DNA from: Sphingobacteriaceae bacterium
GTDB lineage: Bacteria; Bacteroidota; Bacteroidia; B-17B0; Aurantibacillaceae
NCBI GenBank assembly: GCA_947453445.1
Contig: CANGGP010000006.1
Location: 15,999-79,998 of the forward strand
Direction of reading: 5' to 3'
DNA length: 64,000 bases
In this document: piece by piece, positions 20,406 to 64,000 of the stretch
How the letters are laid out: every line of letters starts with the position of its first letter
Position numbering within the stretch: position 1 is the stretch's first letter
Position numbers and translations under genes: made by a program
Notes under the pieces: generated by a model
What the model was told of the DNA's origin: nothing
Seen by the model: the letters and a program-made list of their open reading frames with translations, nothing else
The model's database searches: none

Positions 20406-21479
20406 TTAATTTTGTTTCTTTTCATACAGAAATGCCATTGGCGGCGTGTAGCGCATGAGTAGTTCAAATCCGCCATGATTTCTTGAATAAACACCAATTG
20501 GTGAGAAGCTAAAATCATAGCCTAAACCAATGGCATATTGCTCCGATTTTTCATAAATGTACTGTAATGATATGCATTGTTGACTTCTGTAAAATGCGCC
20601 CAAAGCCATGGAAGAGCGTTTATTTAAACCGGTGTATTTTGAGTTTTCACTAAAATAATAACTAATAAAACTTCCGGCGGCAAAGTAAAGCACCGTGCCT
20701 TGCAAACACACATTGAACGAAGGTGAAAACCCTACATTGGCTTTAGGCGCCAAATACACAAGCTCCCCATGCACATTAAAACGGTAATCACTGTTTTGTT
20801 TTTGAACAAAAAAACCTTGTTTCGCGGCAGCTAAATGATACATCGATAAGCCAACATTCATGCGTTTAAGGCCATACTCCCCCACCCGTTTATTGCGTTC
20901 TTGTAAGGCCCACAAAACACCGCCCGCAAAATCAGGATACACCTGATAAAAAGAATTGAAACTTTCACCCGACGACAAACTTTTATCATAGGTACTGCCA
21001 TTAAATTGATTTGAAAAAATAAGTGATTCGTTTTCAATTTGTTTTTGATACAAACCCGCTTGTATGCCGAAAGATAAAAACTGCTTGGCGCTTAAAGGCA
21101 CAAAATAAGCCACATTTAAATTTGTTTGTAAGCTACTGTATCTGCTGATGCCGGCTTTATCGTTGTATATTGAAAAACCACCTGCCAATCGACTCAGTGA
21201 GCGCTCTTTAAAAGTCATTCCCCGGTGTTTGTCAACTTGTTGCCAATTATCGGGTTTAAACTTCATGTCCAAATTCATTCCAAAAGTTTTATAAGGAAGC
21301 GTAATGTTTCGCCATTGGTCTTTATACGATATCGAAGCCCTTAATACATGGTTTGCCCCGGTTAATGCCGGATTTAATAAAGATGGATTTTCGTTGTACA
21401 TGCTGAATTGTGGATCTTGGGCCGAGCAAATACCACACATAAAAAGCAAACACAACAAATATTGTTTAATACTTCCCAT
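20406..21479 (-). CDS. PorP/SprF family type IX secretion system membrane protein
   Basis: Signal peptide, then the QDPQFSMYNENPSLLNPALTGA family signature and beta-barrel-like alternation. Confidence 0.85.
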   Translation of the reverse strand: MGSIKQYLLCLLFMCGICSAQDPQFSMYNENPSLLNPALTGANHVLRASISYKDQWRNITLPYKTFGMNLDMKFKPDNWQQVDKHRGMTFKERSLSRLAGGFSIYNDKAGISRYSSLQTNLNVAYFVPLSAKQFLSFGIQAGLYQKQIENESLIFSNQFNGSTYDKSLSSGESFNSFYQVYPDFAGGVLWALQERNKRVGEYGLKRMNVGLSMYHLAAAKQGFFVQKQNSDYRFNVHGELVYLAPKANVGFSPSFNVCLQGTVLYFAAGSFISYYFSENSKYTGLNKRSSMALGAFYRSQQCISLQYIYEKSEQYAIGLGYDFSFSPIGVYSRNHGGFELLMRYTPPMAFLYEKKQN

Positions 21480-21886
21480 TATTTAATCAAGGTGATATTA
21501 CCTGCTCTTTTAAATACTTCTCCCTCTTTGGTTTTGGCCTTTATCACAAACATGTAAATGCCATTTTCAAGCACTTGCCCTTTATAATAACCATCCCAAC
21601 AAAAATCAATGGCATACGACTCAAAAAGCAATTCGCCAAAACGATTAAATACCATCACCTCAAATTCATCTACACATTGATCCCATCCCTCCAAACAAAA
21701 ACGGTCGTTTTTACCGTCGCCATTGGGACTAAAAGCATTGGGTGTTTTTAAGGATTCAATGGTGCATGGTGGGTGATGAATGAATATGGGTGAAAAAACA
21801 GAATGAAATACGGCAAATGATTTTTGAACAAAAATCAAGCTAAAAAAAATGAAGTAAATAATTTTTCTAAATTTGAAACTAATCAT
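21479..21886 (-). CDS. minimal T9SS type-B (gliding-motility-associated) C-terminal domain protein
   Basis: Signal peptide plus PNAFSPNGDGKNDRFCLEG...VMVFNRFGELLFES...WDGYYKGQVLENGIYMFVIKA. Its stop overlaps the PorP start (TAATG). Confidence 0.8.
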   Translation of the reverse strand: MISFKFRKIIYFIFFSLIFVQKSFAVFHSVFSPIFIHHPPCTIESLKTPNAFSPNGDGKNDRFCLEGWDQCVDEFEVMVFNRFGELLFESYAIDFCWDGYYKGQVLENGIYMFVIKAKTKEGEVFKRAGNITLIK

Positions 21887-40993: not shown

Positions 40994-43633
40994 ATGAAAA
41001 GAAAATTTTTCGAATTCTTGATCACCGGCAAAAATTTCAGTTTTGCGCTCGTATTTGTTTTAATTTGTGCCTATTCACAAGCACAAACCACTTATACTTT
41101 TAATTACACAGGCAGTCAACAAACTGTTAATTTAACACCCGGCACATACGATATAAAGGCTTGGGGTGGCGATGGTTATACGCAAACAAGTGGATACAAC
41201 GGAAAAGGCGGTTACTCAAATGGCATTTTAACGCTAACTTCTGCACAAACCATTTATGTTTATGTAGGCGGACTTGGTTCATATCCATCAAGTGGTGTTT
41301 CAGGAAATGTGTGGACATTTAATGGTGGTGGCGTTGGATATCCTGCTAGCAATACAGCGTATGGAAACGGAGGCGGCGCCTCTGATGTTAGAACTGTTGG
41401 TGGTTTATGGGATAATAGTTCTAGTTTGGCAAGCAGGGTAATAGTAGCAGGTGGCGGTGGTGCCGGCCGAAATACTTCATACATTGGCGGTAACGGCGGT
41501 GGCCTTGTAGGTGGAACAGGAACTTATTTTAGTCCGGATCAAACCGGAGGACCTACGGGAGGCACCCAAACAGCCGGAGGATTAAACACAGGTTACACTT
41601 CCGGACTTACAACAGCCACTTTAGGTAAAGCAATGACTTGGGATGGTACCACATTAACCGCGAGTTTTCTTGCAGGCGGTGGTGGTGGTTATTATGGCGG
41701 TGCCTCAGGAAGGGTGGCCGGCGGCGGCGGTTCCTCATACATTGGAGGCGTTAGCAGTGGAACCACCATCATGTTTGGTCAAACCGGTTTTGTGACCAAT
41801 CCCGTTGCTTCAAGCGGAAACGGAATGGTCATCATCACTGAGTTGTGTAACATCACCCTCAACAATAACCTTACAGGAAACAACAATGTGGCCATTTGTG
41901 CAGGAACATCTTTATCCTTAACAACCAATGCCATCAGTAATTATTCCTGGAGTAATGGAAGCACTGCGTCTTCAATTGTTGTAACACCAAGTGTAAGTAC
42001 TGTATATACCTTAACAGCTACATCGCCTTCAAACTGTGTAGCAACGCGCATTTTAACAGTAACTGTTAGTTCCGGTAATCCTACCCTTTCAATTAATACC
42101 GGCACCAACGTGATTTGTGCTGGTCAATCACTAATTTTCACTGCATCTGGAGCCAACACTTATACTTGGTCGAACAGCATCGTAAATGGTTCAATTTATA
42201 CACCAAGCGTAACTTCAACCTATACAGTATTAGGGCAAAATGGTTGTGGTATTTCTTCCGCTGTAACCACAATTAGTGTTGCACCATTACCTGTTAGTGT
42301 GATCAGCAACCCTACTGTAGTTTGTGCAGGAAGTACATCCACTTTAACAGCTGCCACTTCAGCCACATCTTTCACTTGGTTCCCGGTTTCGGTGAATGCT
42401 TCATCCATGATGGTTAGTCCCATCAGCAATGCGATTTATACGGTGGTTGCCTCAAATGGCACATGTTTAGGTGCAGCCACAGTGGCGGTAAATGCCAATC
42501 CGATACCAACCATTGTTGCTACACCTTCATTGGCTACAATATGTTCGGGCGATCAAATTGTGTTAAGTGCAACCGGCGCCAATAGTTTTACATGGTCACC
42601 GGGCAATACAAGCGGTAGTTCGGTAACCGTTAGTCCAACCGCACCTACACCCTACCAAGTGGTTGGCACCAATAGCTTTGGCTGTTCAGGTGTAGCGAAT
42701 CTAGCCATTATTGTAATTCCAGGTCCAAGTTTATCAATTGTATCAGATGCCAATTTAATTTGTAAAGGATCGGCCGTTAATTTGAGTGTAACAGGTGCTA
42801 ATTCATATACATGGAGTAGTGGTTCAAACAATTCGACCATTAGTGTGAGTCCAACGGTTACAAGTACCTACAGTGTTATCGGTGATGTAAACGGCTGTTT
42901 GGGTAATACAGTCATCAGTGTGTCTGTATTAAACCCGAGTGTAGCTGTTAGCGGCAATACTTCCATTTGTTCGGGTGAGTCGGCAACACTTATTGCTTCA
43001 GGTGCCACTTCGTACTCTTGGAATACAGGTGCAAGTGGCAATAGTATACTTGTGAATCCTACAAGCAACACCACGTATACTGTTTATGCTTCAACCAATT
43101 CAATTAGTATAAACTGTCCGAGTACAAAATCGGTAACTGTAAATGTTAAACCTTTGCCCACCATCATCGCAAGTATTAACAGTACCAATGTGTGCAAGGG
43201 CGATGCTTGTATTTTAAATGCCTCCGGGGCAGCAAGCTATACATGGAGCACAGGCAATAATACACCTAGCATTACTTTAACGCATACCCTTTTAACCACC
43301 GTAATTTATAGTGTGAGTGGCACAAGCACACTTAATTGCGTGAACAATGCTACACTACAAGTAAAGGTAAATGCTTGCACCGGTATTGATGAATTAAACA
43401 AGGATAAAACATTACTACAGGTTTATCCTAATCCGAACAACGGTAGTTTCTTAATTGCGTCGAAATACAACGGTGAAATATTTATATTAAATCAACTTGG
43501 TCAGCTTGTTAAACAATTAAAAATCAATGAAGGCGAACAAGTAAACGTTAGTGATTTGGCGCCGGGCGTTTATTACATCAATGTTTCAAGTAGAATAGAA
43601 CAATCTAGTTTAAAAATTATTGTGACCAAATAA
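40994..43633 (+). CDS. T9SS type-A cargo: glycine-rich domain plus 7 Cys-pair Ig-like repeats plus C-terminal sorting domain (paralogue 2)
   Basis: Same architecture. YTFNYTGSQQTVNLTPGTYDIKAWGGDG...RVIVAGGGGAG...GNGMVIITE. Repeat 4 is nearly identical to paralogue 1. The C-terminus is VYPNPNNGSFLI...GVYYINV...KIIVTK. Confidence 0.85.
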   Translation: MKRKFFEFLITGKNFSFALVFVLICAYSQAQTTYTFNYTGSQQTVNLTPGTYDIKAWGGDGYTQTSGYNGKGGYSNGILTLTSAQTIYVYVGGLGSYPSSGVSGNVWTFNGGGVGYPASNTAYGNGGGASDVRTVGGLWDNSSSLASRVIVAGGGGAGRNTSYIGGNGGGLVGGTGTYFSPDQTGGPTGGTQTAGGLNTGYTSGLTTATLGKAMTWDGTTLTASFLAGGGGGYYGGASGRVAGGGGSSYIGGVSSGTTIMFGQTGFVTNPVASSGNGMVIITELCNITLNNNLTGNNNVAICAGTSLSLTTNAISNYSWSNGSTASSIVVTPSVSTVYTLTATSPSNCVATRILTVTVSSGNPTLSINTGTNVICAGQSLIFTASGANTYTWSNSIVNGSIYTPSVTSTYTVLGQNGCGISSAVTTISVAPLPVSVISNPTVVCAGSTSTLTAATSATSFTWFPVSVNASSMMVSPISNAIYTVVASNGTCLGAATVAVNANPIPTIVATPSLATICSGDQIVLSATGANSFTWSPGNTSGSSVTVSPTAPTPYQVVGTNSFGCSGVANLAIIVIPGPSLSIVSDANLICKGSAVNLSVTGANSYTWSSGSNNSTISVSPTVTSTYSVIGDVNGCLGNTVISVSVLNPSVAVSGNTSICSGESATLIASGATSYSWNTGASGNSILVNPTSNTTYTVYASTNSISINCPSTKSVTVNVKPLPTIIASINSTNVCKGDACILNASGAASYTWSTGNNTPSITLTHTLLTTVIYSVSGTSTLNCVNNATLQVKVNACTGIDELNKDKTLLQVYPNPNNGSFLIASKYNGEIFILNQLGQLVKQLKINEGEQVNVSDLAPGVYYINVSSRIEQSSLKIIVTK

Positions 43634-51188: not shown

Positions 51189-51354
51189 TGAGATATTCAT
51201 GCTGCGTAATAAATTTATTTTATTATCAAAAAACTGTTTTAGCTGTTGTCAAATCTTGATCAATACTAAGCACTGAAAAAAAATAATTCATTAAATTTTT
51301 AATCAGAAATTTGTTTTTTTGTAACTTCACTTGATTAATCAAATAATTAAAACT

Positions 51355-54105
51355 ATGAAACAAAAATATCTAACTAAAATAATCCTCAATCAATTTGGGT
51401 TATTGGGTTTTGTGCTGTTTGCCACTGTAATTATACCCAACTCATCAATGGGCCAATTATCGTATACTTTTACGCCTTGTGGTGCAACTGGCGCTAATGG
51501 TCCTACTCAAACACAAGCAAATAGCACTTATTCAACTGGCAACAGCTTAAATGGTTCGGTTACTATCACAGGAAACGGCATACAGCAGTTTACAGTGCCT
51601 ACAACCGGCATTTGGAAAATTGATGCCCGTGGAGCATCCGGTTATCCTTTCGGATCAGGTGGTAGAGGCGCAAGAATTTACGGTGAAGTTAGTTTAAATG
51701 CAGGTGACGTTTTAAAAATTGTTGTTGGACAATTGGGTAATTTCTGTAACAGTAGTGGTAATTTACAATATGGCGGAGGCGGTGGTTCATTTGTGGCACG
51801 ACTTAATAATACGCCGCTTGTTATTGCAGGTGGTGGTGGTGGCTCGCATGCAGGATCGTACGCAGCAAGTTCTGCGGATGGAACAGTTGTGACCACTGGT
51901 AATACCGGTGCAGGTTCAACCGCCGGTGCAGGCGGTAGTGGTGGGTCTGGCGGCGCAGCTTCATCTTCAGCCAACGGTGGCGCTGGATTTTATGGTGATG
52001 GTGGCGGTACAACAGGACCTGCTTTATCGTTTACAAACGGCGCCCAAGGTGGTAATGTTGGTTGCGGAGCATACACTTATGGCGGCGTTGGCGGTTTTGG
52101 CGGCGGCGGCGGCACGCAAAGTTATAATAACAACCGCGGCGGCGGCGGCGGCGGCTATAGTGGCGGCGGCGGCGGTCAACTTGGCCAGCCTACTTGTTGG
52201 GGCGGCGGCGGCGGCTCATTTAATTCAGGCGCAAACCAAATCAATCAATCTGGCGCTAACACCTTCAGTGATGGTATCGTTATTATTACCGAAGCTTGTA
52301 ATATGAATTTAAGTGCTTCAACGAATACCAACGTGAACAATACAAGCACTACCATTTGTTCGGGTCAAACCTTAACATTAACCACTAATGGCGTTAGCAG
52401 TTATTCGTGGAGCACAGGCGCTACAACCTCCTCTATTGTTGTTACGCCAACTGCCAGCATATTATATACCTTGTCAGCCACCTCTCCTTTTAGTTGCACA
52501 GCATCCAGAAGTTTAAGTGTGACAGTGAACAGTGGTTTACCGGTTCTTTCAGTGGCAACAACACCAACCAATAATATTTGTCTTGGTAAAACAGTAACGC
52601 TTACAGCCAGCGGTGCCAACTCCTATTCATGGACAGGCGGCGTAAGCAACGGAACAAGTTTTGCACCAAGCACCACATCTAATTACATTGTAACAGGTCA
52701 AAATGCATGTGGTACTGCTACTGCTCAAGCGGGTGTAACTGTTGCACCATTGGTAGTAACAGCTATTACAAGCAACTCTAGTGTTTGCGCAGGCCAATCA
52801 ACTTCTTTAATTGCTACTTCAGCGGTTAATGGATATACATGGACGCCCTTTAATTTTATTGGATCTACTGTTTTGGTTAATCCGGTTGTAAATACCATTT
52901 ATACTGTCACTGCCTCTGATGGAACCTGCGCTGGAACAGCAACTGTTAGTGTGTCGGCATTACCAATCCCTACCATCACAAGTGTATCAAGTTCAACAAA
53001 CTTTTGTGAAGGCAGTTCTGCGACCTTAACAGCCGGAGGAGCGATTGCGTATACTTGGCAGCCAGGCAATGTAACCGGTAATACTATTGTTGTAACGCCT
53101 GTTGTACCTACACTCTACACCGTTACAGGTATTGGCAGTAACAGTTGCTTTGCCAGCGCAAATCAAATTGTGATCGTTAATCCATCTCCTACTTTAAATA
53201 TTAGTTCAAGTAATCCACTCATTTGTTTAGGAGGAAATGCCACCATAAATATTAACGGAGCTTCAACTTACACATGGAACAGCGGGGCCAATTCAAGCAG
53301 CTTGGTGGTAAGTCCAATTCAAAACACAACCTATACAGTGGTTGGTGAAGATGCAACAACCAATTGCAAAAGCACCAGCACCATTGCTGTATCGGTTTTC
53401 AGTCCATCCTTAAGCATTACCGGAAACACGGCCATTTGTATCGGCGCATCGGCTACTTTGCAAGCAAGTGGCGGCAACACTTATAATTGGAGCAATGGCG
53501 GACCAAGTGCAATTAATATTGTTAATCCAAGCAGTACAACCATTTATTCTGTGAGCGCACTTACTAATTCAGGAAGTATCAATTGTTCAAGCAGTGCTAG
53601 CATCCAAGTAGTAGTGAAACCAAATCCAAGTATTACTGTTGTGCCAAGCAGAAGTGTAATTTGTAAAGGTGAAACTGCAAATGTTTCAGCTACAGGCGCA
53701 CAAACCTACACTTGGAGCACAGGTGATATCACTGCTTCGGTGAATGTAACTTCAAGTTTAGTCACCACTATTAATTATACAGTAACAGGCACCAGCAGTT
53801 TAGGTTGTGTTGGCAGCAATTCAACCTCAGTAAAAATTAATTCATGCATTGGTTTGGAAACGTATACCGGATTAGACCAAAGTTTCATCCTTTTTCCAAA
53901 TCCCAATCAGGGTCATTTTGTGATTGAATGCGCTACAGATATACAAGTATCAGTTTACAATCAAATTGGAGAACTAATTGTGACAAAACAATTAAGTGGG
54001 GCTAAACAATACGATATGGATTTAAGCCAGTTGAATGCAGGCGTTTATTTTATTTCTGCCTTTGACGGAAACAATCGCATCTACAAAAAGATGATTGTAG
54101 AATAA
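51355..54105 (+). CDS. T9SS type-A cargo: ALK/LTK-like glycine-rich domain plus 7 Cys-pair Ig-like repeats plus C-terminal sorting domain (paralogue 3; track ORF starts at TTG 51331)
   Basis: FTPCGATGANGPTQTQANSTY...IQQFTVPTTGIWKIDARGASG...LKIVVGQLG...GGGGGSFVA...PLVIAGGGGGS...GGGGGGYSGGGGG...DGIVIITE, then seven Ig-like units. The C-terminus is LFPNPNQGHFVIE...GVYFISAFDGNNRIYKKMIVE. Confidence 0.85.
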   Translation: MKQKYLTKIILNQFGLLGFVLFATVIIPNSSMGQLSYTFTPCGATGANGPTQTQANSTYSTGNSLNGSVTITGNGIQQFTVPTTGIWKIDARGASGYPFGSGGRGARIYGEVSLNAGDVLKIVVGQLGNFCNSSGNLQYGGGGGSFVARLNNTPLVIAGGGGGSHAGSYAASSADGTVVTTGNTGAGSTAGAGGSGGSGGAASSSANGGAGFYGDGGGTTGPALSFTNGAQGGNVGCGAYTYGGVGGFGGGGGTQSYNNNRGGGGGGYSGGGGGQLGQPTCWGGGGGSFNSGANQINQSGANTFSDGIVIITEACNMNLSASTNTNVNNTSTTICSGQTLTLTTNGVSSYSWSTGATTSSIVVTPTASILYTLSATSPFSCTASRSLSVTVNSGLPVLSVATTPTNNICLGKTVTLTASGANSYSWTGGVSNGTSFAPSTTSNYIVTGQNACGTATAQAGVTVAPLVVTAITSNSSVCAGQSTSLIATSAVNGYTWTPFNFIGSTVLVNPVVNTIYTVTASDGTCAGTATVSVSALPIPTITSVSSSTNFCEGSSATLTAGGAIAYTWQPGNVTGNTIVVTPVVPTLYTVTGIGSNSCFASANQIVIVNPSPTLNISSSNPLICLGGNATININGASTYTWNSGANSSSLVVSPIQNTTYTVVGEDATTNCKSTSTIAVSVFSPSLSITGNTAICIGASATLQASGGNTYNWSNGGPSAINIVNPSSTTIYSVSALTNSGSINCSSSASIQVVVKPNPSITVVPSRSVICKGETANVSATGAQTYTWSTGDITASVNVTSSLVTTINYTVTGTSSLGCVGSNSTSVKINSCIGLETYTGLDQSFILFPNPNQGHFVIECATDIQVSVYNQIGELIVTKQLSGAKQYDMDLSQLNAGVYFISAFDGNNRIYKKMIVE

Positions 54106-54124
54106 TTTCAATTGATACCAATAA

Positions 54125-54155
54125 AAAAGCCTCCTAAATGGGAGGCTTTTTTTTT
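54125..54155. terminator. bidirectional rho-independent terminator
   Basis: aaaaAGCCTCCtaaatGGGAGGCTttttttttt lies between convergent genes. Confidence 0.85.
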
Positions 54156-55311
54156 AATTTAATTTCTGTATCGCTAAGAGAATGTTTTTTTCTTGATCAT
54201 TGAAATGCAATCCTCGTCGCTCGAAAACCTTTGTATTGGTTTCGAATAATTTTTCATTTTGATAACGCTCAAAGCCCTCGCTCCCACCCCAACTAAATGA
54301 AGGAATGTATGTTGGCGGAAAACCACCGCCAAAGATATTACAACCTACACCTACAACAGTTCCGGTATTAAACATTGTATTTATACCTGATTTGGAATAA
54401 TCGCCCATAATTAATCCGCAAAATTGCAAACCTGTATCAATGGCTTTTTTTAAGGGATAATTGTACAGTTTTACATTTGCGTAATTGTTTTTTAAATTGC
54501 TGTTATTGGTATCGGCACCTAAATTGCACCATTCACCGATCACAGAATTTCCCAAAAAGCCATCATGTGCCTTGTTGCTGTACCCAAAAATAACGCTGTT
54601 ATTTACCTCGCCCCCTACTTTGCTATGCGGACCTATGGTTGTTGCCCCATAAATTTTTGCCGACATTTTTAATGCACTGTGCTCACATAAAGCGAAAGGA
54701 CCTCTAACCACCGAGCCTTCCATGATTTCGCTATCTTCTCCCAAATAAATAGGTCCGCTTTGTGTGTTTAAAACACAAGCAGTTGCTTTGGCGCCTTTTT
54801 CAAGAAAAACCAAATTGCGGTCACCTATTACGGTCACAGAAGCATCAAGTTTTTCGGATTGGCGTTGATTGGTGATTAAATGAAAATCTGCTTTTAGGGC
54901 AATGTCATTTTTTGTAAAAATATCACTTGGCGTTGAAATGCTTAATACTTCGGCATCAAGTTCTTTTTTACTGAGGGATTCGTATGACTGAAGTATTTCA
55001 TTGTGTTTATAGGCAATCAACAATTGTCCACTGTACAAAGCTTCGTTGTTTTGCAAGCCTTGAATGGCAGCAAGTAATTTAGCATCAGGACAAACAGAGG
55101 CATTGATGAATAAGTTGTTTTGACTTAAATTCAATTTGTATTTTTCGCTCAGATATTCTTTACAATGATAAGAAATCGACAATCCAAGGGCTTTTTCCCA
55201 TTTTTGGGCAATCGTTAAAATACCAATTCTAATTTCAGAGATGGGTCTAGTGAAAGTTAAGGGCAAAAGATTATTCCAGGTTTGTTCGTTGTCAAACAAA
55301 ACTACATTCAT
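54154..55311 (-). CDS. GlmU-like putative sugar nucleotidyltransferase/acyltransferase (left-handed beta-helix)
   Basis: MNVVLFDNEQTWNNLLPLTFTRPISEIRIGILTI plus C-terminal hexapeptide-type repeats (IGPHSKVGGEVNNSVIFGYSNKAHDGFLGNSVIGEWCNLGADTNNSN). It overlaps the upstream gene by 4 nt. Confidence 0.7.
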   Translation of the reverse strand: MNVVLFDNEQTWNNLLPLTFTRPISEIRIGILTIAQKWEKALGLSISYHCKEYLSEKYKLNLSQNNLFINASVCPDAKLLAAIQGLQNNEALYSGQLLIAYKHNEILQSYESLSKKELDAEVLSISTPSDIFTKNDIALKADFHLITNQRQSEKLDASVTVIGDRNLVFLEKGAKATACVLNTQSGPIYLGEDSEIMEGSVVRGPFALCEHSALKMSAKIYGATTIGPHSKVGGEVNNSVIFGYSNKAHDGFLGNSVIGEWCNLGADTNNSNLKNNYANVKLYNYPLKKAIDTGLQFCGLIMGDYSKSGINTMFNTGTVVGVGCNIFGGGFPPTYIPSFSWGGSEGFERYQNEKLFETNTKVFERRGLHFNDQEKNILLAIQKLN

Positions 55312-58300
55312 TTTTTCAATCTTTTTTTGGCTTTAATAATTTTGAATTCAGTACGACGATTTACTGCATGTTCAGCATCGGTACATGGTACATTATTAAA
55401 ACACTTATTAATAATTTTTGTTTCGCCGTAACCAATCGGTTTTAAGCGATCTTTGCTAATGCCTTTGGCTACAAGGTAGTCGACCGCGGCTTGTGCTCTT
55501 TTACGAGAAAGATTTAAATTAAAACCGTAACTCGATTGGGCATCGGTGTGTGAGCTAATTTCCAAATCCAGTTTAGGATTTCCGTTTAATACTTCGAAAG
55601 CTTTATCCAATACTTTTTTGGCTTCATCTGTTACTTCAAATTTACCATAGCCGTAATAAATATTCTCAACAATGGTAATGCTAATTTCCATGTCGATGGC
55701 AGCCTCTTCGTCTTTTTCACGCTGTAGGCGCTCTTCTTCATCTTTACGGGCTTGTTCTTTTTGCGCCAACAATTCAGCTTCTTTTATGCGTTTGGCTTCT
55801 TTAGCGGCTTCTTCCTTAATACGTTTTGCTTCAAGCGCAGCTTCTTCCTTATTTTTCTTTTCAAGGCCGGCTAATTCTTTAGCGGTTTTCTCGGCCAATT
55901 CACGTTCTTGTTTGGCGACTAGGTCGGCAGCTTTTTTCGCAGCCAATTCTCTTTCGGCTTTGGCGCGCATTTCGCGTTTTTTGGCTTCCGTCATTTTTAA
56001 CCAAGGATCATCAACTGAAAATTCGCCCATGGCATTTTTATCGGCCTCTAAAATTTTAAAGGTGAACATACCCGATTCAAGTTCTATCACGCGGTAAACC
56101 TTTCCTTTGCTATCTGCCAAGCGAATTGATTTTACACCAACCATACCCGGGTCGTTTGGATCTGATTCAAAAAGATAATTCTTTTCGGCACTTAAATTTT
56201 TGAAACTAAACTTACCATAAGGAGAAGTAACGATTTTACGGGGATTCGTTCCGTCTTCGTCTTTCACTGTTAGATGTGCATTGGCAATTGGTTTATTGTT
56301 TTGATCATATAGATAACCATAAATTCCCATCACCATGTTTGCATCGCCTGCATCCATATCGGCCATCAAGTTCTTGTCGGAGCTTAAGATTTTAAAATCG
56401 AAATTCTCTTCTTTATCTTTTACGATCGATTTAACCTCTTTACCTGATTTATTGGTGATGGTAATGCGAGTACCCGGCGGCAATTGCACATCACCTTCAT
56501 CGATTGATACAATGAAATTTTGATCGCCCGGAATATTTCTAAATGCAAAAGCACCGAATTCGTTGGTGGTTGTTTCACCAATTACTTCACCGGCTTGATT
56601 CAAGATTTTCACTTTAACGTTTTTCATGGCTTTAGAAGCCTTGTCGCCCGACATTAAAGTACCTGCAAATGAAATATCTTCATCGGCTGCCATATCGTTG
56701 ATGACGCTTTTTTCGGAAGATAAAATTTTGAAAGCAAAATCTTCTTTTGTTTTCACATAAGATTTCATCTCCTTACCAGCTCTGTTTGTGAGGGTAATTT
56801 TTGTACCATCCGGAAGATGTAAATCTTCATCATCCACGGTTACAATATAATTTTGATCACCCGGAATATTTTTAAAAGTAAAGTTTCCGTTTTCATCGGT
56901 TTCGGTTTCACCCAATACTTCACCCGATTGGTTCACAATTTTTACCTTCACTTTTTTCATGGCCACATTGGCCTGATCACCTGAAAATAATTTTCCGGCA
57001 AATGAAACATCTTGCGCTTCGGTATCAGACATTGGCACCACTTCTCCACTCACATTTTTAAATCCAAATTTTCCGTTCGGCAATTTGGTGGCAACACCGG
57101 TAATAACCGTATCTTTTTGGGCAAGGTAATATTTCTTTCTGCCGATCATTTGGGCATCTACCTCATCAACCACTGCCATGTATTTTTTCTCACTCGATAA
57201 ATTTTTGAAAACAAATTGCCCTTTATTATCTGTTACGGTGCTATCAATTTTTCTACCGTTTTCATCGTATAACACAACCTTCTTTTCGGCGGCAACGTCT
57301 TTTACATTTTTACTAAGTAATACTGTTCCTCCTAATTGGAATGACTTATCCTTAAATCTGAAAAAATAAATATCATCTTTTCCTTTACCACCGGTGCGGT
57401 TAGATGAGAAATAACCGCTTGAATCGGTTAAAAAAGTAACGCCAAAATCATCGGTACTGCTGTTCAGTTGAATGCCTTCGTTACGATTCAAAATCCATTT
57501 GTTGTCAATTCTGTTTGCAGAGTATATATCTAATCCACCAAAACCAGGCAGACCATTTGAAGAGAAAAACAATTTACCATCTTTACGAATGGTTGGAAAC
57601 ATTTCATCGCCGCTGGTATTAATATCGGGACCAAGATTCACGGGCGTTCCCCAATTGATTGAATCATTTTTAACGCACATCCAAATATCTTTGCCGCCAA
57701 AACCACCGGGCATATCGCTTGTAAAGAAAAGTGTTTTATTATCGGCGCTAATGCTAGGATGCGCAATTGAATAATCATCGCTTGAAAAAGGCAATACTTT
57801 AATGTCTTTCCATGAGCGGTTTGATCCTTTTGCGGTATAAATTTTTGAGCGATTTACAAAGCCTTTCTTTTGTATGTTTAACACCCTTGTGAAATAAAGT
57901 GTTTTACCATCAACGCTTAAACAAGCTGGACCATCGTGGTATTCGGAGCTTAGTTTTTTAGAAAGTGTTTTTGATTTTTTTAATTTCTCGCCTTCAATTT
58001 CAGAAACAAACATTTGAATATAAGGCAAACCATCGCTGCTATTTACTTCATAGTTTACAAAATCGAAGCTTTCGTGTTCGGCCACAAACATTAGTTTGTT
58101 ATTGGCTACATAAGGCGAAAACTCAGCTTTTTCGGTGTTTATTCCGTCGATGTTTTGCACACTGTATTCAACCGGCTTGGCAAGGTAATAATTGATTTCT
58201 GCACAAAACTTGAGTGCTTTTTTCGCATACTCATCATTTGGGGCCTTTTGCAAATACAGATTATAGTATTTTGCGGCCTCTTCGTATTTGGTATTTGATT

Positions 58301-58607
58301 TTAATACTTGTGCAAATTTATAATACACATCATTTTCGAGTGGTGCTGCATCTGTTATTTCAACTGCTTGGCGATAACAAGCCTCGGCATTGGCGTAATC
58401 ATTTAATTTAAGGTAAATGCTACCAAGTTTTAGGTTGGCGGCTTGACGCTCGGTTGCTATTTTTGATTTCTGTGCTTTTTTATAAAACGGAATTGCCTCG
58501 GCATATTGTTCGTTGGCAAAAAGCAAATCACCTTTGGTTAATTGGGCATTACCAATTAAAGAACATACTACGAGAAAGGCAATGGTATAAAGTTTTGATA
58601 ATCTCAT
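55308..58607 (-). CDS. large OmpA-family protein: TPR, TolB-like beta-propeller, carboxypeptidase-regulatory-like repeats, Lys/Glu coiled coil and OmpA C-terminal domain
   Basis: TPR-like N-terminus (YAEAIPFYKKAQ, YANAEACYRQAV). PD40-like blades (DGKTLYFT, NKTLFFTSDMPGGFGGKDIW, GKLFFSSNGLPGFGGLDIY). Repeats of the ENGNFTFKNIPGDQNYIV type. The C-terminus is EISSHTDAQSSYGFNLNLSRKRAQAAVDYLVAKG...NRRTEF. Confidence 0.85.
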   Translation of the reverse strand: MRLSKLYTIAFLVVCSLIGNAQLTKGDLLFANEQYAEAIPFYKKAQKSKIATERQAANLKLGSIYLKLNDYANAEACYRQAVEITDAAPLENDVYYKFAQVLKSNTKYEEAAKYYNLYLQKAPNDEYAKKALKFCAEINYYLAKPVEYSVQNIDGINTEKAEFSPYVANNKLMFVAEHESFDFVNYEVNSSDGLPYIQMFVSEIEGEKLKKSKTLSKKLSSEYHDGPACLSVDGKTLYFTRVLNIQKKGFVNRSKIYTAKGSNRSWKDIKVLPFSSDDYSIAHPSISADNKTLFFTSDMPGGFGGKDIWMCVKNDSINWGTPVNLGPDINTSGDEMFPTIRKDGKLFFSSNGLPGFGGLDIYSANRIDNKWILNRNEGIQLNSSTDDFGVTFLTDSSGYFSSNRTGGKGKDDIYFFRFKDKSFQLGGTVLLSKNVKDVAAEKKVVLYDENGRKIDSTVTDNKGQFVFKNLSSEKKYMAVVDEVDAQMIGRKKYYLAQKDTVITGVATKLPNGKFGFKNVSGEVVPMSDTEAQDVSFAGKLFSGDQANVAMKKVKVKIVNQSGEVLGETETDENGNFTFKNIPGDQNYIVTVDDEDLHLPDGTKITLTNRAGKEMKSYVKTKEDFAFKILSSEKSVINDMAADEDISFAGTLMSGDKASKAMKNVKVKILNQAGEVIGETTTNEFGAFAFRNIPGDQNFIVSIDEGDVQLPPGTRITITNKSGKEVKSIVKDKEENFDFKILSSDKNLMADMDAGDANMVMGIYGYLYDQNNKPIANAHLTVKDEDGTNPRKIVTSPYGKFSFKNLSAEKNYLFESDPNDPGMVGVKSIRLADSKGKVYRVIELESGMFTFKILEADKNAMGEFSVDDPWLKMTEAKKREMRAKAERELAAKKAADLVAKQERELAEKTAKELAGLEKKNKEEAALEAKRIKEEAAKEAKRIKEAELLAQKEQARKDEEERLQREKDEEAAIDMEISITIVENIYYGYGKFEVTDEAKKVLDKAFEVLNGNPKLDLEISSHTDAQSSYGFNLNLSRKRAQAAVDYLVAKGISKDRLKPIGYGETKIINKCFNNVPCTDAEHAVNRRTEFKIIKAKKRLKK
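56345..57012 (-). repeat. in-frame tandem duplication of a unit of about 111 aa inside the OmpA-family gene
   Basis: DVSFAGKLFSGDQANVAMKKVKVKIVNQSGEVLGETETDENGNFTFKNIPGDQNYIVTVDDEDLHLPDGTKITLTNRAGKEMKSYV aligns with DISFAGTLMSGDKASKAMKNVKVKILNQAGEVIGETTTNEFGAFAFRNIPGDQNFIVSIDEGDVQLPPGTRITITNKSGKEVKSIV. Coordinates are approximate. Confidence 0.8.
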
Positions 58608-58614
58608 ATAATTC

Positions 58615-59541
58615 TTACAAGAAACGTGGATTGATTAAACGTGATGTTTTCTTGGCTGCCAGGTCATATCCCAACATTAATTCATGACTGCCTCCAAGTC
58701 GACGTGAATCAGAAATTCCTGAATCGTAAGAATAGGCAATTCTAAAATGATCTGACATGTAGTATTGAAACAACATACCCGGACCATAGCCTGCGCGATA
58801 AAATGCGCCAAGCCAAAGTTTTTTATGCAAGAAAAAATTAAGATTTAAGTCTAATCCGAAATTATTACCTACTTGTTTCATTAAAATGGTTGGGGCGAAC
58901 ACGGTGTTTTTATCGATAATAAAAGAATAACCGGCGGTTAAAAATAAATGTGTTTTTAAGCGGTATTTAAAATCGTTTCCGCCGGCAACAACAGGGGCGT
59001 ATGTGTAAACATTCGGATTGTTAAGATGGGTGGCGCTTAATCCAACAAAATATTTGGTTGAGCGCAAATACATACCGGCATTAATATCCAAAGCGCTTGG
59101 CGTTTGATTTTGCATTAACTGAGAAGGCACTTCACCTTCTTTGAAATTAATTTTACTGAAATTAAATTGGTAGCGGTTATAACCGGCATTTAAACCAAAG
59201 CCCAATTTGGTTTTGCGGTCAATTTTTAAAATATAAGCGGCATTGCCATAGGCTGCAATAACGTTGCGCGGCCCCATGATATCATTCACAACTGTTAAAC
59301 CAACACCAACATTTTTTTTCACAATTGGTGAGTGCACACTAAAGCAAGTTGTTTGAGGGGCTCCATCGAATCCCACCCATTGTTTTCTGGTTGAAACAGT
59401 TGCCGCCAAACCATCGCGGGCACCGGCATAACCTGGATTAATGACCATTTGGTTGAACTGATAAAGGTTGTACTGAGCATCTTGTTGCGCCTTGCCGGCC
59501 AAGAAACCCATTAAACTTAAAAGTGTAAATAATTTTTTCAT
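58615..59541 (-). CDS. PorP/SprF family type IX secretion system membrane protein
   Basis: Signal peptide, then the QQDAQYNLYQFNQMVINPGYAGA family signature. It ends 7 nt before the OmpA-family gene. Confidence 0.88.
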   Translation of the reverse strand: MKKLFTLLSLMGFLAGKAQQDAQYNLYQFNQMVINPGYAGARDGLAATVSTRKQWVGFDGAPQTTCFSVHSPIVKKNVGVGLTVVNDIMGPRNVIAAYGNAAYILKIDRKTKLGFGLNAGYNRYQFNFSKINFKEGEVPSQLMQNQTPSALDINAGMYLRSTKYFVGLSATHLNNPNVYTYAPVVAGGNDFKYRLKTHLFLTAGYSFIIDKNTVFAPTILMKQVGNNFGLDLNLNFFLHKKLWLGAFYRAGYGPGMLFQYYMSDHFRIAYSYDSGISDSRRLGGSHELMLGYDLAAKKTSRLINPRFL

Positions 59542-59718
59542 TCTTGTTTTTATTTATTTTGGTGCTTTATCAGGTTAAGTCAACAGAATGTTTTTTGTGA
59601 TTTTTATTGGTTTCCAAATCTATTTTTAACATCACAATATTACTAAATTATCTGATAAAACAAAATTTTTCTTTTACTGCAAATCAAGGATTTAAGCGTG
59701 ATTGATTAACATTTTGAT

Positions 59719-60525
59719 TTAATCTTTAATGAGTTCAACCCAACCTTTTCGGGGGCTAGTTCCATTACCCAAATCAATGATATAAAAATAGGTACTGGAA
59801 GCTAATTTAACCAGTTGGTCTTTTGTTGGCCAAACATTGTTTTTATTGTCGTAATTCTTGGTTTTGAATATTTCGTAGCCCCAACGGTTATAAATGGTGA
59901 CTTCATTGTTGGGATATTTCTCTATGTCTTCGATGATCCATGTTTCATTTACACCATCGTTGTTTGGGGTAACACCATGATAAATTGTAATGTTACAATC
60001 AACTGAACTGTTTACGATGTCGTAACTGGCATTAATGGTTGTATCTGCCCTTACATTTCCTTTTTTATCTATACTTTGAAGTAAAACTTGCACGGCATAT
60101 TTACCGGGGGCTAAACTATCGATCATACTGCAATTACCTTTAGGGCAATAGGCACTTGAGGCCCAGATAAATGTTGGTGTAAAGTTAAGCGCAGAGGAAA
60201 GCACCTCTAACTTAATAAAAGCATCCGCGTTTTTATCCCTACACAATAGTGAATTAACAAAAGCTGACAAGGTATAACTCGGTTTGATATCCGGAATGGT
60301 TTTTTGAATGATGATGGGCTGTAGATAACCTTGTGTAATCATCATATTGGCGGCGGGACCAAAAGTTTGCACAAAAGGTTCGCCAACGTTATCACTGATG
60401 TAAACACCGCTGGTTCCAAGTTGATGGTCGCCACCGGCCGAGTTGATGACTTGTTGGGCTTTATTTTGCAGGGTTATAATGATGAAGCAAAATAAGACTG
60501 TTTCTTTCAATACTTTTAATTTCAT
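59719..60525 (-). CDS. small T9SS type-B C-terminal domain protein
   Basis: Signal peptide, N-terminal SAGGDHQLGTSGVYISDNVGEPFVQTF...ITQGYLQP motif. The C-terminus is GVTPNNDGVNETWIIEDIEKYPNNEVTIYNRWGYEIFK...STYFYIIDLG. Confidence 0.8.
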   Translation of the reverse strand: MKLKVLKETVLFCFIIITLQNKAQQVINSAGGDHQLGTSGVYISDNVGEPFVQTFGPAANMMITQGYLQPIIIQKTIPDIKPSYTLSAFVNSLLCRDKNADAFIKLEVLSSALNFTPTFIWASSAYCPKGNCSMIDSLAPGKYAVQVLLQSIDKKGNVRADTTINASYDIVNSSVDCNITIYHGVTPNNDGVNETWIIEDIEKYPNNEVTIYNRWGYEIFKTKNYDNKNNVWPTKDQLVKLASSTYFYIIDLGNGTSPRKGWVELIKD

Positions 60526-60614
60526 ATTTTTATTTTTAATTCAGGTCCGTAAGATTCTTTTTTTTTATAGCTCAATACTATCATTTTTATTTACTTTTTG
60601 ATTAGCGTACAATA

Positions 60615-63600
60615 TTATTTTATTTGTAGCCAATTGGTTCCATCAGAAATAATTTCGATTCCGAGATTATTACCAAGACCAACAGCGGCAGTTCCAGTTA
60701 AATCAATGTAGGATGAAACTGTTCGAGCACTTCCTGAACGATTAACTATGACATACCTTCTATTTGGACAAGTGCTTGCGGCAGGCAATGTAATTGAGCT
60801 AACGGCAGTAATAACATAATATACTGAGCCGGTTCCGTCAAGGGTTAGCACTCCCGTTCCGCTGGATTTAATTATGGTTGAAGCAAACGAACCTTTTATA
60901 TCCATGGTGCTTAAGGCTGTAGTTGTACCTATGCCTAAATTTCCTGTAGAAAAATCACCATAAATAAGTGGTGTTACACTGGTTGCGGAATTGGCGATGT
61001 ATAATTTATTTGAATTGGTTTCGTAATAACCAGCTTGCGAGCCAATGAATACGTTATTACTGCTATTGCCTGATTGGTAGCCGGCAAAATTTCCCATTAT
61101 TACGTTTGCGCTTCCTGTATTTCCATAACCCGCAGAAGTACCCACATAAACGTTACCGGCCCCTGTTGCTTGATCACCTGCTGAGAATCCGAAGGCTACG
61201 TTATTGTTACTTGTGGAATTTGTTCTTAGCGCGTACATACCATAAGCTGAGTTAAAACTTCCGGTGGTATTGTTATGCAATGAATAATAGCCTGAAGCCA
61301 CATTATAACTACCGGTGCTATTGGCATACAGTGCCAAGCTACCAAGGGCTGAGTTTTGTGAACCTGATGTATTAAATATTAATGCTTGGTTACCTATTGC
61401 TGTGTTATCAGAACCATTGCTGTTTGAATTTAAAGCACTTGACCCGAAGGCATTATTATTGCTTCCTGTGCTATTGTTTCCCAATGCAAAATAACCAAAT
61501 GCGCCATTTGATGAACCCGAATTACCCGAATACATTGCGAAGTTACCTACGGCGGTATTAAATGAACCGCTACCACTATTATTCAAAACATTGTAACCCA
61601 CGCCCACATTGCTACTGCCTGTAATATTTGAAAGTAAGGCATTCATGCCAATTGCTGTATTAAATGATCCGACAGTATTTAATTTCAAAGACTGACTACC
61701 AAATCCTGAATTTCCAATTCCATTGGTGTTTGCACTTAATGACATAAAACCAAATGCAGAATTGTTGCTAGAACTTGTATTGCTGTACAATGCGCCACTA
61801 CCCGATGCTGTGTTGAACGAACCTGTAGTGTTTGACAAGAGGGCTTGATTACCAAATGCTGCATTTTCTTGTCCGAAAGTATTTGAACCTAAACTTAAGT
61901 AACCTAAAGCTGTATTGAACAAAGTATTATCGATGGTACCGGACTTTTGATTGTTCACTCTAAAATTAAGTGCATGGTTATCGCTTGTACCAATAAAATT
62001 AAGCGAGGGTGTTGTACTGGCATTTCCGGTTAAACCCCATCCGCCACCTCCACCTGAAGGGGTTTGCCAGGTGGCATTACCACTGGCATCGGATGTGAGA
62101 ACCTTTCCGCTTGCTTGGTTACCATCTTCAAAACGCATGGTACCTGACACGTGCAAATTGGCCGATGGCACAGTTGCACTCGCTGTACCTACGGCTATGC
62201 TTCCTCCAACATAAGTATTATATGGGGTGTAAATACCCCACACATTGAAGTTAGCATCTTTAAACGCCAAAGCGGCCCAGTAATTACCATTGTATTGTGC
62301 TCCTAATACCCCGGCGGAGTTTGAATAATCGTTAAAATTATGACCAGCCATGCCTGCGGTGAAAACATCTCCCCAGTAACTTGCACCTTGAACTGCAGCA
62401 TCCACTTGATTATAGGCCCAACCTGTTCCTCCATTCACACTAAAGGTTGAACCTGTGCGCCAACCGGCAATTGTTGCTTTACCCGGACCATAATCATTTA
62501 CGGCAGAAGCATCGCGGTAAACATATAAATTATAATTACTTCCGGTATTTTGACTATTAATACCTACTCTACCATTGCCTCGAACGCGCATTAACTCATT
62601 GCTTGTACTTGATGAAGTACCTGCGTAAAACACATGGTCGGCGCCGGTGTAATCAACATGATATTGAAACTCAGTTGAAGAAGAACCTAATCCGTAGAAT
62701 TGATGATCATCATTTGAGGCTTCAAATAAAACAAGTTTTCTATTCGCAAAGGTATTGTCAAATTGTAAAGGTGCATTTGCGTTGGTGGTGCCAATTCCAA
62801 CAAAATTACTATTAAAATCACCGTAAATTAAAGTGTTGGTGCTACTATTTGCTATATGTAAAACCCCTGAATTTGTTTCATTTGAGCCGGCATCATAACC
62901 GATAAAAACATTGTTGCTTCCTGTTGCACTTGAACCTGCATTATAACCCAAAGCTGTGTTTTTTTCACCGGTATAATTATTACTTAAAGCATTTACTCCA
63001 ACTGCGGAATTAAAACTTCCAACTGTGTTATACATTGCATTGTTACCCAAGGCCAAGTTATAACTGCCTGTTGTATTTGAACGCAATGAATAACCACCAA
63101 GCGATGTATTGTTCGCACCAGTAAAATTAAAGTGTTGTGATTCTGAACCTATAGCAGAGTTGTAACTACCGGTTGTTAAATTCATCAAAGTCCAATCACC
63201 TAAGGCGGTGTTCTCATTTCCTGTGTCTATACTTTTTAGAGCGTATTCACCGTAAGCACTATTCCATGTAGAAGTTGTTGTTTCATTACCTGCGGAATTT
63301 CCAAAATAAATTGAACTGTTGGCAGAGTTGATTCTACCTGCCAAACCGTTATTCACGCGAAACATTAAATCATTATTATCTGTTGTACCAAGGAAATTTA
63401 ATGATGGGGTGGTTCCGGCATTACCTGTTAAAGACCAAACATTGGTACCTGTTGCCACAGTTGTCCATATTGGTGCAGTATTGGCGCCTTGTGAAATGAG
63501 GAACTCACCTGCGCTGCCTGAAAGTCCACCGGGCATGAGGGCGTCAGAAAATTTCAAATTACCATTTACATCCAATGCTTCTGTAGCACTGGCAGTGTTA

Positions 63601-64000
63601 ATCCCTAGTAGTCCATTTGCAAAATCACCTTTCATTAAAGGTGTTGTAGAATTAGAAGAATTCGCAATCCACAAATTATCGCTGCCTGTTTCGAAATAAC
63701 CTGCATCTCTACCTAAAAATACATTACCAGTGCCGGTTGTTACAGTACGACCAGCGCGATAACCAAGGGCAACGTTATAACTACCGGTAGTTACAGAGGC
63801 CATTGCTTGTGAACCCAAAGCGGTGTTTAATGCACCACTTGTGTTAGAGAATAAAGCTGACTGACCAACAGCCGTATTTTCAAAACCGGTTGTATTGGCT
63901 TTTAGTGCTGAAAAACCACTTGCTTCATTAAAACTTCCAGTTGAGTTTGAATACATAGCCTGCGAACCACTGGCATTATTAAACGAACCGGTGCTGTTAG
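60615..64000 (-). CDS. giant repeat-rich fibre/adhesin-like protein with no recognisable T9SS sorting domain; N-terminus lies beyond the window end
   Basis: The reading frame stays open upstream of the track Met (NSTGSFNNASGSQA-MYSNSTGSF). It has long runs of 17-residue repeats (NxAxGxxALxxNTxGxx) interrupted by conserved connector motifs, and a non-repetitive C-terminal domain of about 90 aa. Confidence 0.85.
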   Translation of the reverse strand, partial: NSTGSFNNASGSQAMYSNSTGSFNEASGFSALKANTTGFENTAVGQSALFSNTSGALNTALGSQAMASVTTGSYNVALGYRAGRTVTTGTGNVFLGRDAGYFETGSDNLWIANSSNSTTPLMKGDFANGLLGINTASATEALDVNGNLKFSDALMPGGLSGSAGEFLISQGANTAPIWTTVATGTNVWSLTGNAGTTPSLNFLGTTDNNDLMFRVNNGLAGRINSANSSIYFGNSAGNETTTSTWNSAYGEYALKSIDTGNENTALGDWTLMNLTTGSYNSAIGSESQHFNFTGANNTSLGGYSLRSNTTGSYNLALGNNAMYNTVGSFNSAVGVNALSNNYTGEKNTALGYNAGSSATGSNNVFIGYDAGSNETNSGVLHIANSSTNTLIYGDFNSNFVGIGTTNANAPLQFDNTFANRKLVLFEASNDDHQFYGLGSSSTEFQYHVDYTGADHVFYAGTSSSTSNELMRVRGNGRVGINSQNTGSNYNLYVYRDASAVNDYGPGKATIAGWRTGSTFSVNGGTGWAYNQVDAAVQGASYWGDVFTAGMAGHNFNDYSNSAGVLGAQYNGNYWAALAFKDANFNVWGIYTPYNTYVGGSIAVGTASATVPSANLHVSGTMRFEDGNQASGKVLTSDASGNATWQTPSGGGGGWGLTGNASTTPSLNFIGTSDNHALNFRVNNQKSGTIDNTLFNTALGYLSLGSNTFGQENAAFGNQALLSNTTGSFNTASGSGALYSNTSSSNNSAFGFMSLSANTNGIGNSGFGSQSLKLNTVGSFNTAIGMNALLSNITGSSNVGVGYNVLNNSGSGSFNTAVGNFAMYSGNSGSSNGAFGYFALGNNSTGSNNNAFGSSALNSNSNGSDNTAIGNQALIFNTSGSQNSALGSLALYANSTGSYNVASGYYSLHNNTTGSFNSAYGMYALRTNSTSNNNVAFGFSAGDQATGAGNVYVGTSAGYGNTGSANVIMGNFAGYQSGNSSNNVFIGSQAGYYETNSNKLYIANSATSVTPLIYGDFSTGNLGIGTTTALSTMDIKGSFASTIIKSSGTGVLTLDGTGSVYYVITAVSSITLPAASTCPNRRYVIVNRSGSARTVSSYIDLTGTAAVGLGNNLGIEIISDGTNWLQIK
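60999..61916 (-). repeat. 18 consecutive 51-nt (17-residue) coding repeats
   Basis: Counted by hand from NTALGYLSLGSNTFGQE to FIGSQAGYYETNSNKLY: 18 x 17 aa = 306 aa = 918 nt, exactly matching the coordinates. Confidence 0.85.

Follow-up and report, generated by a model that had tools for sequence, protein, structure and literature searches.

Proteins with a type-B C-terminal sorting domain are exported through a type IX secretion system (T9SS) and stay on a cognate PorP/SprF barrel, which PorE-type proteins tether to peptidoglycan (PMC9143113, PMC12618676). In Porphyromonas gingivalis, PorE (PG1058; PMC5053529), which consists of TPR, beta-propeller, carboxypeptidase-regulatory-like (CRD) and OmpA_C domains, forms a complex with PorP and the type-B protein PG1035 (Gorasia 2022, PMC9143113; PMC5053529). 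Flavobacterium johnsoniae has five operons of a type-B substrate, an SprF-like carrier and a PorE homologue, for which static wall-anchored complexes have been proposed (Paillat 2025, PMC12618676). Fibres of another kind, the mosaic adhesive trimers (MAT) of Bdellovibrio bacteriovorus, have an N-domain predicted to sit close to the cell, where it presumably attaches to an as yet unidentified element of the surface (Caulton 2024, PMC10769870). Here we describe a minus-strand gene cluster in a 64,000-nucleotide (nt) stretch of Sphingobacteriaceae bacterium DNA (contig CANGGP010000006.1; hereafter the window), in which a large fibre gene precedes genes for a small type-B protein, a PorP/SprF protein, a PorE-like protein and a GlmU-like enzyme.

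The cluster resembles the complex of PorE, PorP and PG1035 by pairing a type-B protein of modest size with a PorP, and that PorP with a peptidoglycan-attached TPR/propeller/CRD/OmpA_C protein. In P. gingivalis, the genes for these three proteins lie apart from one another, and neither a partner nor a function is known for PG1035, whereas in the window the three genes are adjacent and the type-B protein has both a conserved N-terminal motif (N-motif) and fibres without a C-terminal sorting domain encoded ahead of it. The PorE-like protein is also longer than P. gingivalis PorE and falls under the NCBIfam PorE cut-off. Fjoh_3952/3951/3950 share with the window the order of type-B substrate, SprF-like carrier and PorE homologue, but there the adhesin itself has the type-B domain, which in the window sits on a protein of 268 amino acids (aa) next to a large fibre that has none. 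Although the initial annotation of this DNA knew of no characterised example of such a system, the type-B cargo/PorP/PorE unit has been characterised (PMC9143113, PMC12618676, PMC5053529). The trio, three of the five genes, is therefore an already known unit.

We propose, at a probability of roughly 55%, that the adhesin fibres encoded in the cluster are anchored by their N-termini and receive their signal for T9SS sorting and anchoring in trans, from the small protein. The elements on which this proposal turns, including the N-terminal fibre domain that we call fibN, are as follows.

60615 to past 64000, minus strand: fibre gene, open at the window edge, with the C-terminal 1127 aa visible
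L001:2247-2650, outside the window: fibre signal peptide and fibN domain
59719-60525, minus strand: small type-B gene, 268 aa, CHU_C/TIGR04131; proposed fibre adaptor or anchor
60316-60456, minus strand: N-motif of the 268-aa protein, residues 24-70; proposed fibN-docking element
60016-60276, minus strand: Cys-containing SprB-like Ig spacer of the 268-aa protein, residues 84-170
59731-59988, minus strand: type-B T9SS sorting domain of the 268-aa protein, residues 180-265

The fibre gene is complete on a longer public contig, L001, which is 100% identical to 14 kb of the window (L001:6526-20525) and where the gene (L001:2247-9911) encodes 2554 aa with a Sec signal peptide. In another assembly the same gene (L002:2660-9778) encodes 2372 aa; the contigs are otherwise identical across the 14 kb shared with the window, and the difference sits in the N-terminal repeat region, reflecting either repeat-number variation or assembly collapse. 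Within the window, the fibre consists of YadA-head-like repeat blocks, neck motifs and a terminal domain of ~110 aa without a family. Scans with Pfam and NCBIfam bore out the earlier statement that the fibre has neither a type-A nor a type-B domain and that its small neighbour carries the type-B domain: the visible 1127 aa gave no match at E ≤ 0.01, with type A, B and C sorting-domain models included. A PDB sequence search returned no relative of fibN or of the last 228 aa of the fibre.

The fibN domain comprises ~115 aa (residues ~20-135) and directly follows the signal peptide in every family member. It was modelled by AlphaFold2 as a beta-sandwich (predicted local distance difference test score, pLDDT, ~90), for which Foldseek found generic Ig-like or beta-sandwich matches only in the PDB (E ≥ 0.005, template modelling score [TM] ≤ 0.46). 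NCBIfam model NF053851, Bdello_MAT_N, was matched by 18 of 19 fibN domains, with a best E of 1.2e-9 and scores of 25-35 bits, under the cut-off of 60; because of these sub-threshold scores, we classify fibN as a distant relative of the Bdellovibrio MAT N-domain, outside that subfamily. The likeness extends to the overall design, with a signal peptide followed by a conserved beta-rich N-domain (~115 aa in fibN, ~130 aa in MAT). MAT fibres are long trimers with swapped S74, TNF/C1q-like and lectin tips, and the fibN fibres are likewise mosaic-tipped: the 81 complete fibN fibres end in C1q (13), BclA_C (8), H_lectin (8), S74 (3), PA14 (3), Collar and other domains, and none of them has a sorting domain in its last 130 aa. 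No lipobox or other export signal besides the signal peptide was seen in the fibres. Their domain order (signal peptide, fibN, variable stalk, swappable tip) marks them as a Bacteroidota branch of the MAT type, and trimer-forming tip families together with the YadA-head-like repeats point to trimeric surface fibres. MAT fibres belong to a different phylum, Bdellovibrio lacks a T9SS, and reports of a partner for its fibres are wanting, whereas the window offers a specific candidate for a partner gene.

Fibre paralogues in one locus share 57.5% identity over the N-domain, against a median of 26% over the tips. The C-termini are hypervariable, and the fibre C-terminal domain, through which contact with the small protein had at first been expected, was rejected as a docking site.

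The candidate partner is the 268-aa protein, in which a signal peptide (a hydrophobic N-terminus ahead of ...NKA/QQ), the ~50-aa N-motif, the Ig spacer and the type-B sorting domain follow one another. Its sorting domain scores above curated cut-offs (PF13585 CHU_C, 84.4 bits against 27; TIGR04131, 50.8 bits against 35) and a PorP_SprF gene lies 177 nt downstream, so it is a predicted T9SS type-B cargo. It belongs to a conserved family of 250-270-aa proteins, some of which match Pfam SprB; Foldseek with the small protein gave only generic Ig-like or beta-sandwich matches. The N-motif, QVINSAG...DNVGEPF..T...ITQGYLQP, has no family in Pfam or NCBIfam. It contains four short predicted strands with pLDDT values of 50-64 in an AlphaFold2 model computed without a partner; such low confidence is compatible with folding on a partner and is in itself no proof of it.

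A homologue search with the motif alone yielded only five fragments; the first-pass search appears to favour matches of roughly query length. By contrast, when 1.84 billion proteins were searched with a motif profile, at least 5081 clusters (50% identity) were recovered, with the motif N-terminal in all. These proteins are mostly 150-175 aa long, with a second mode at 250-270 aa, and many comprise the motif and a sorting domain and nothing else beyond a signal peptide. Among the best 142, 88 have a type-A (Por_Secre_tail) and 19 a type-B (CHU_C) sorting domain. Variants with inserted Ig spacers or a duplicated motif would fit an adaptor of adjustable length. The only name given in protein-cluster look-ups was "hypothetical protein".

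The association of the two elements held in both directions. A metagenome search with a four-sequence fibN alignment gave 78 distinct loci, 58 of them evaluable, and an N-motif open reading frame (ORF) was present in 55 of these 58. All 56 N-motif ORFs were on the same strand as the fibN gene and within 200 nt of it (median gap 15 nt), and they occurred in two gene orders, 48 upstream and 8 downstream. A typical one is 155-190 aa long and carries a sorting domain after its signal peptide and ~50-aa motif; nine were scanned against Pfam, giving seven type-A domains, one type-B domain and one dockerin. Starting instead from the N-motif, a minimal motif protein adjoined a fibN gene in 4/4 evaluable loci. 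As a control, the surroundings of other type-B genes (757 kb of Bacteroidota DNA) were examined and contained no N-motif and no fibN match. By genomic position, N-motif genes and fibN genes are near-obligate neighbours. Comparative genomics thus substantially supports the suggestion, made in the initial annotation, that the small type-B protein serves as a carrier or anchor for the fibre.

The same pairing appears within the window's own lineage, where an alignment of the 268-aa protein family recovered 30 species-level loci of uncultured Bacteroidota. In their usual order, one to four genes in tandem (500-2500 aa) come first and the small type-B gene follows; a larger type-B gene with FG-GAP or M43/SprB/PKD domains may come next, and then PorP, the PorE-like gene and often the GlmU-like gene. 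The upstream genes are alike only over their first ~115 mature residues, which correspond to fibN, and in 19 of the 20 loci that show where the upstream gene starts, one to four fibN genes without a sorting domain directly precede the small type-B gene. A proposed check of gene neighbourhoods therefore found the fibre gene syntenic with the small type-B, PorP and OmpA/TPR genes; fibN was absent from 50 loci around other type-B genes. An ORF of 864-868 aa lies just upstream of the fibre array in L006, L008, L011, L012 and L014; it is ClpB by Pfam in L006 and assumed to be the same in the others from its size and position. The place of the cluster on the chromosome, with clpB on one side and the GlmU-like gene on the other, would then be conserved, while its fibre genes vary in number and type. 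We also considered a prophage tail-fibre origin, which was rejected: signal peptides are present on the fibres, relatives have the locus in the same place near the clpB and glmU-like genes, and no phage genes were found among neighbours whose families were checked, though no dedicated phage-protein scan was made.

Apart from the sorting domain, nothing is conserved in the adaptors but the N-motif, and in the fibres nothing but fibN. Since the two are also near-obligate neighbours, the simplest reading is that the N-motif binds fibN, probably through added strands, and the pairing holds across gene orders and both sorting-domain types. In the window's version, the adaptor would then be held on PorP by its type-B domain, and PorP on the cell wall by the PorE-like protein, so that the fibre would stand on PorP-PorE with its variable tip facing outward. 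Type-A sorting domains, which most N-motif proteins carry, are cleaved and replaced by an anionic lipopolysaccharide (LPS) anchor (PorU/PorV). In most other Bacteroidota the mature product would be a ~60-residue docking peptide, without any enzyme or adhesin domain, left linked to surface LPS; the window's own adaptor uses a type-B domain instead. BclA, a collagen-like filament of the Bacillus exosporium, offers an analogy only: it too is trimeric, with an outward C1q-like head and an N-terminus fixed to a dedicated partner, a basal-layer protein, and its BclA_C domain is the tip found on eight of the 81 fibres, but it is built on a Gram-positive spore surface and has no secretion-system signal.

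Within the gene pair, the only export (sorting) signal sits on the adaptor, which favours co-export, and we infer that the adaptor takes the fibre through the translocon. The adaptor-fibre complex would form in the periplasm and the adaptor's sorting domain would carry the fibre across, the least certain step of the scheme. In its full form, in which T9SS takes cargo in trans, with a very large and so far unannotated family of mini-proteins that binds fibN in the periplasm, pulls the fibre through and stays behind as an LPS- or PorP/PorE-linked foot, the idea is tentative and we hold it to be somewhat doubtful. It would recall the "hitchhiker" export of the Tat system, where signal-less folded subunits are exported bound to a signal-bearing partner, though at the inner membrane and by machinery different from T9SS. 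To our knowledge, no hitchhiker-type case has been described for T9SS.

Several observations weigh against the proposal as a whole and should be considered alongside it. Only genome context suggests the contact between N-motif and fibN, most of the loci are short metagenome contigs or uncultured genomes, and 3 of the 58 evaluable fibre loci have no motif gene. The synteny within the lineage could partly be inherited gene order, since the cluster lies between conserved housekeeping genes (clpB and glmU-like). Two of the 56 motif proteins appear to have a dockerin in place of the sorting domain: that of L127 (10532-11317) has a ~190-aa region ending in dockerin type I by Pfam and no T9SS sorting domain, and that of L108 (10604-11425) has a ~190-aa region which, judged by eye, resembles it. 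Both genes close fibN gene arrays. Nor is the N-motif exclusive to mini-adaptors: in L168 (5808-8516) it stands at the head of a MopE-like type-A cargo of 902 aa, and the vicinity has no fibre gene. Finally, the literature searched contained no precedent for T9SS cargo export in trans, and fibN fibres may have a different way across the outer membrane, given that Bdellovibrio MAT fibres reach the surface without T9SS.

That last point leads to the explanation that competes best with ours, namely that the small protein is only an anchor, exported alone by T9SS and held on PorP-PorE or, in type-A versions, on LPS, while the fibre crosses separately and docks at the surface. Besides the surface location, without T9SS, of the Bdellovibrio MAT fibres that share the N-domain (PMC10769870), the occurrence of dockerin-bearing motif proteins fits this alternative, as does the docking peptide that removal of a type-A domain would leave, a sensible product if anchoring were its only task. 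On the other hand, the fibres have no visible alternative export signal, neither lipobox nor sorting domain, the adaptor holds the sole export signal of the pair, and folded fusion cargo, sfGFP and mCherry for example, is known to be moved by T9SS (PMC12618676, PMC10994853). Taking both sides together, we judge an anchor-only role unlikely, though it deserves serious attention.

We find it improbable that the genes are independent neighbours, with the small type-B protein a PG1035-like cap or minor PorP-PorE cargo that has no physical link to the fibre and an adjacency that reflects shared regulation or inherited order. PG1035 is itself a ~50 kDa type-B protein of unknown function on PorP-PorE (PMC9143113), the window contains another type-B/PorP pair without a fibre beside it, and the cluster lies between clpB and the glmU-like gene in the window's lineage. 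Yet the pairing of N-motif and fibN spans divergent lineages, two gene orders and both type-A and type-B domains, control DNA has neither element, and many motif proteins are motif and sorting domain alone. Least probable is an unrecognised T9SS signal in the fibre itself, in its C-terminal ~110 aa or in fibN, with the small protein as an accessory: non-canonical sorting domains do exist (NCBIfam has a type C, ChiA-like model) and the last domain of the window fibre has no family assignment, but the 81 fibre C-termini are unrelated known tip folds (C1q, BclA_C, H_lectin, S74) with no shared signal, there are no type A, B or C matches, and fibN finds only generic PDB beta-sandwiches at the E and TM values given above.

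The remaining genes of the cluster would supply the outer-membrane partner and the tether for the proposed adaptor, except for the GlmU-like gene that closes it.

58615-59541, minus strand: PorP/SprF gene, 308 aa; PF11751 PorP_SprF, 224 bits
55308-58607, minus strand: PorE-like gene, 1099 aa; TPR, PD40, three CarboxypepD_reg, OmpA
54154-55311, minus strand: GlmU-like gene, 385 aa; TIGR03991 alt_bact_glmU, 430 bits
54123-54152, either strand: terminator hairpin, 13 bp stem followed by a T-run

The 308-aa PorP/SprF protein is a full-length family match (TIGR03519, 248.5 bits against a cut-off of 90.55, residues 1-293); this outer-membrane barrel is presumed to carry and anchor the type-B domain as its cognate partner. 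In the 1099-aa protein the domains follow the order of PorE (TPR, beta-propeller, carboxypeptidase-regulatory-like, OmpA_C), with TPR at residues 29-125, PD40 repeats, at least three CarboxypepD_reg domains, a K/E-rich segment and OmpA at 984-1068. Its scores lie below the cut-offs of both NF052230 PorE (378.5 bits against 600) and NF053607 CHU_0125 (429.6 bits against 620), and it is therefore named PorE-like, not PorE. Its counterparts in related loci have ~888 aa, ~210 aa fewer, and the extra length, which lies between the propeller and OmpA and consists of more CarboxypepD_reg-like repeats and the Lys/Glu-rich segment at ~870-960, may form a longer periplasmic spacer. The N-terminus, MRLSKLYTIAFLVVCSLIGNAQ, contains a Cys preceded by a Val at position -1 that is atypical for a lipobox, and by eye cleavage before Gln is equally plausible. 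From its domains, the protein is predicted to be a periplasmic tether that binds peptidoglycan through OmpA_C. Support for a PorP tethered to the wall comes from a natural fusion in locus L133 (14739-16619), where a single 626-aa protein joins PorP_SprF (247 bits), thrombospondin type-3 repeats and OmpA; its gene is downstream of a type-B gene, and the locus also has a 166-aa adaptor of motif and type-B domain and a fibN gene.

A second type-B/PorP pair is encoded at 20406-21886 on the minus strand. It comprises a 135-aa protein, made up almost entirely of a signal peptide and a CHU_C type-B sorting domain (68 bits), and a 357-aa divergent PorP/SprF paralogue (26% identity to the cluster PorP over 139 aa), with the stop codon of the first gene overlapping the start of the second by one base. 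The pair has no N-motif and no adjoining fibre, and the 135-aa protein may be a PG1035-like cap. The genome consequently has at least two PorP paralogues, which rules out the cluster PorP as its single core PorP. Type-A domains also occur elsewhere in the window: tandem plus-strand paralogues of 918 and 879 aa (38179-40935 and 40994-43633) have ALK/LTK-type glycine-rich and type-A sorting domains, a 924-aa protein convergent with the cluster (51331-54105) has a Gly-rich N-terminal part and a type-A domain, and a 1158-aa protein at 12366-15842 is a Laminin_G/PNGase-like type-A cargo.

As a transcription unit, the cluster largely conforms to its first description as a five-gene module. Five co-oriented minus-strand genes are present as described, separated by gaps of 89, 177 and 7 nt and then a 4-nt overlap, but the set does not end at five: on L001 a second fibre gene without a sorting domain, to which the gene call gives more than 1188 aa, is found 16 nt upstream of the first. 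The GlmU-like gene, which overlaps the PorE-like gene by 4 nt, is probably co-transcribed. The single strong terminator reported after the last gene was recovered as the hairpin at 54123-54152, the sole strong hairpin of the cluster, which as minus-strand RNA has a folding energy of -19.7 kcal/mol (z = -4.0; none of 200 shuffles folds equally well). With convergent genes on either side and A and T runs at its flanks, it is probably an intrinsic terminator working in both directions. Both the 89-nt gap and the segment folded from the 177-nt gap (59580-59724, the greater part of it) are rich in A and T and show less structure than their shuffles (z = +0.9 and +1.3). A sigma-70 promoter scan gave fewer sites than in shuffles, with a model that is ill-suited to Bacteroidota promoters.

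Two further claims of the initial annotation need to be narrowed. It had described a self-contained export system, but the cluster is an anchoring and sorting module only: no translocon or motor gene was found in the ORFs scanned, most window ORFs being outside that scan. The GlmU-like enzyme had been counted as part of the module; its gene comes after that of the PorE-like protein in 13 of 19 related loci, and we regard the product as an alternative GlmU-like sugar nucleotidyltransferase/acetyltransferase that is co-located but to which we assign no part in the module.

T9SS substrates are now defined by a sorting domain on the cargo, and genome-wide cargo predictions depend on that rule. If signals can be supplied in trans as we propose, there would be a hidden class of T9SS-dependent adhesins, comprising collagen-like fibres and fibres tipped with C1q, lectin or S74 domains, and thousands of orphan tiny ORFs that consist of a sorting domain only would have a purpose. 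The class of surface partner for the MAT N-domain would also have been identified, and N-motif proteins are a testable candidate for what keeps MAT-type fibres on the cell, a question left open by the Bdellovibrio work. The motif/fibN pair could in addition serve as a plug-in system for surface display.

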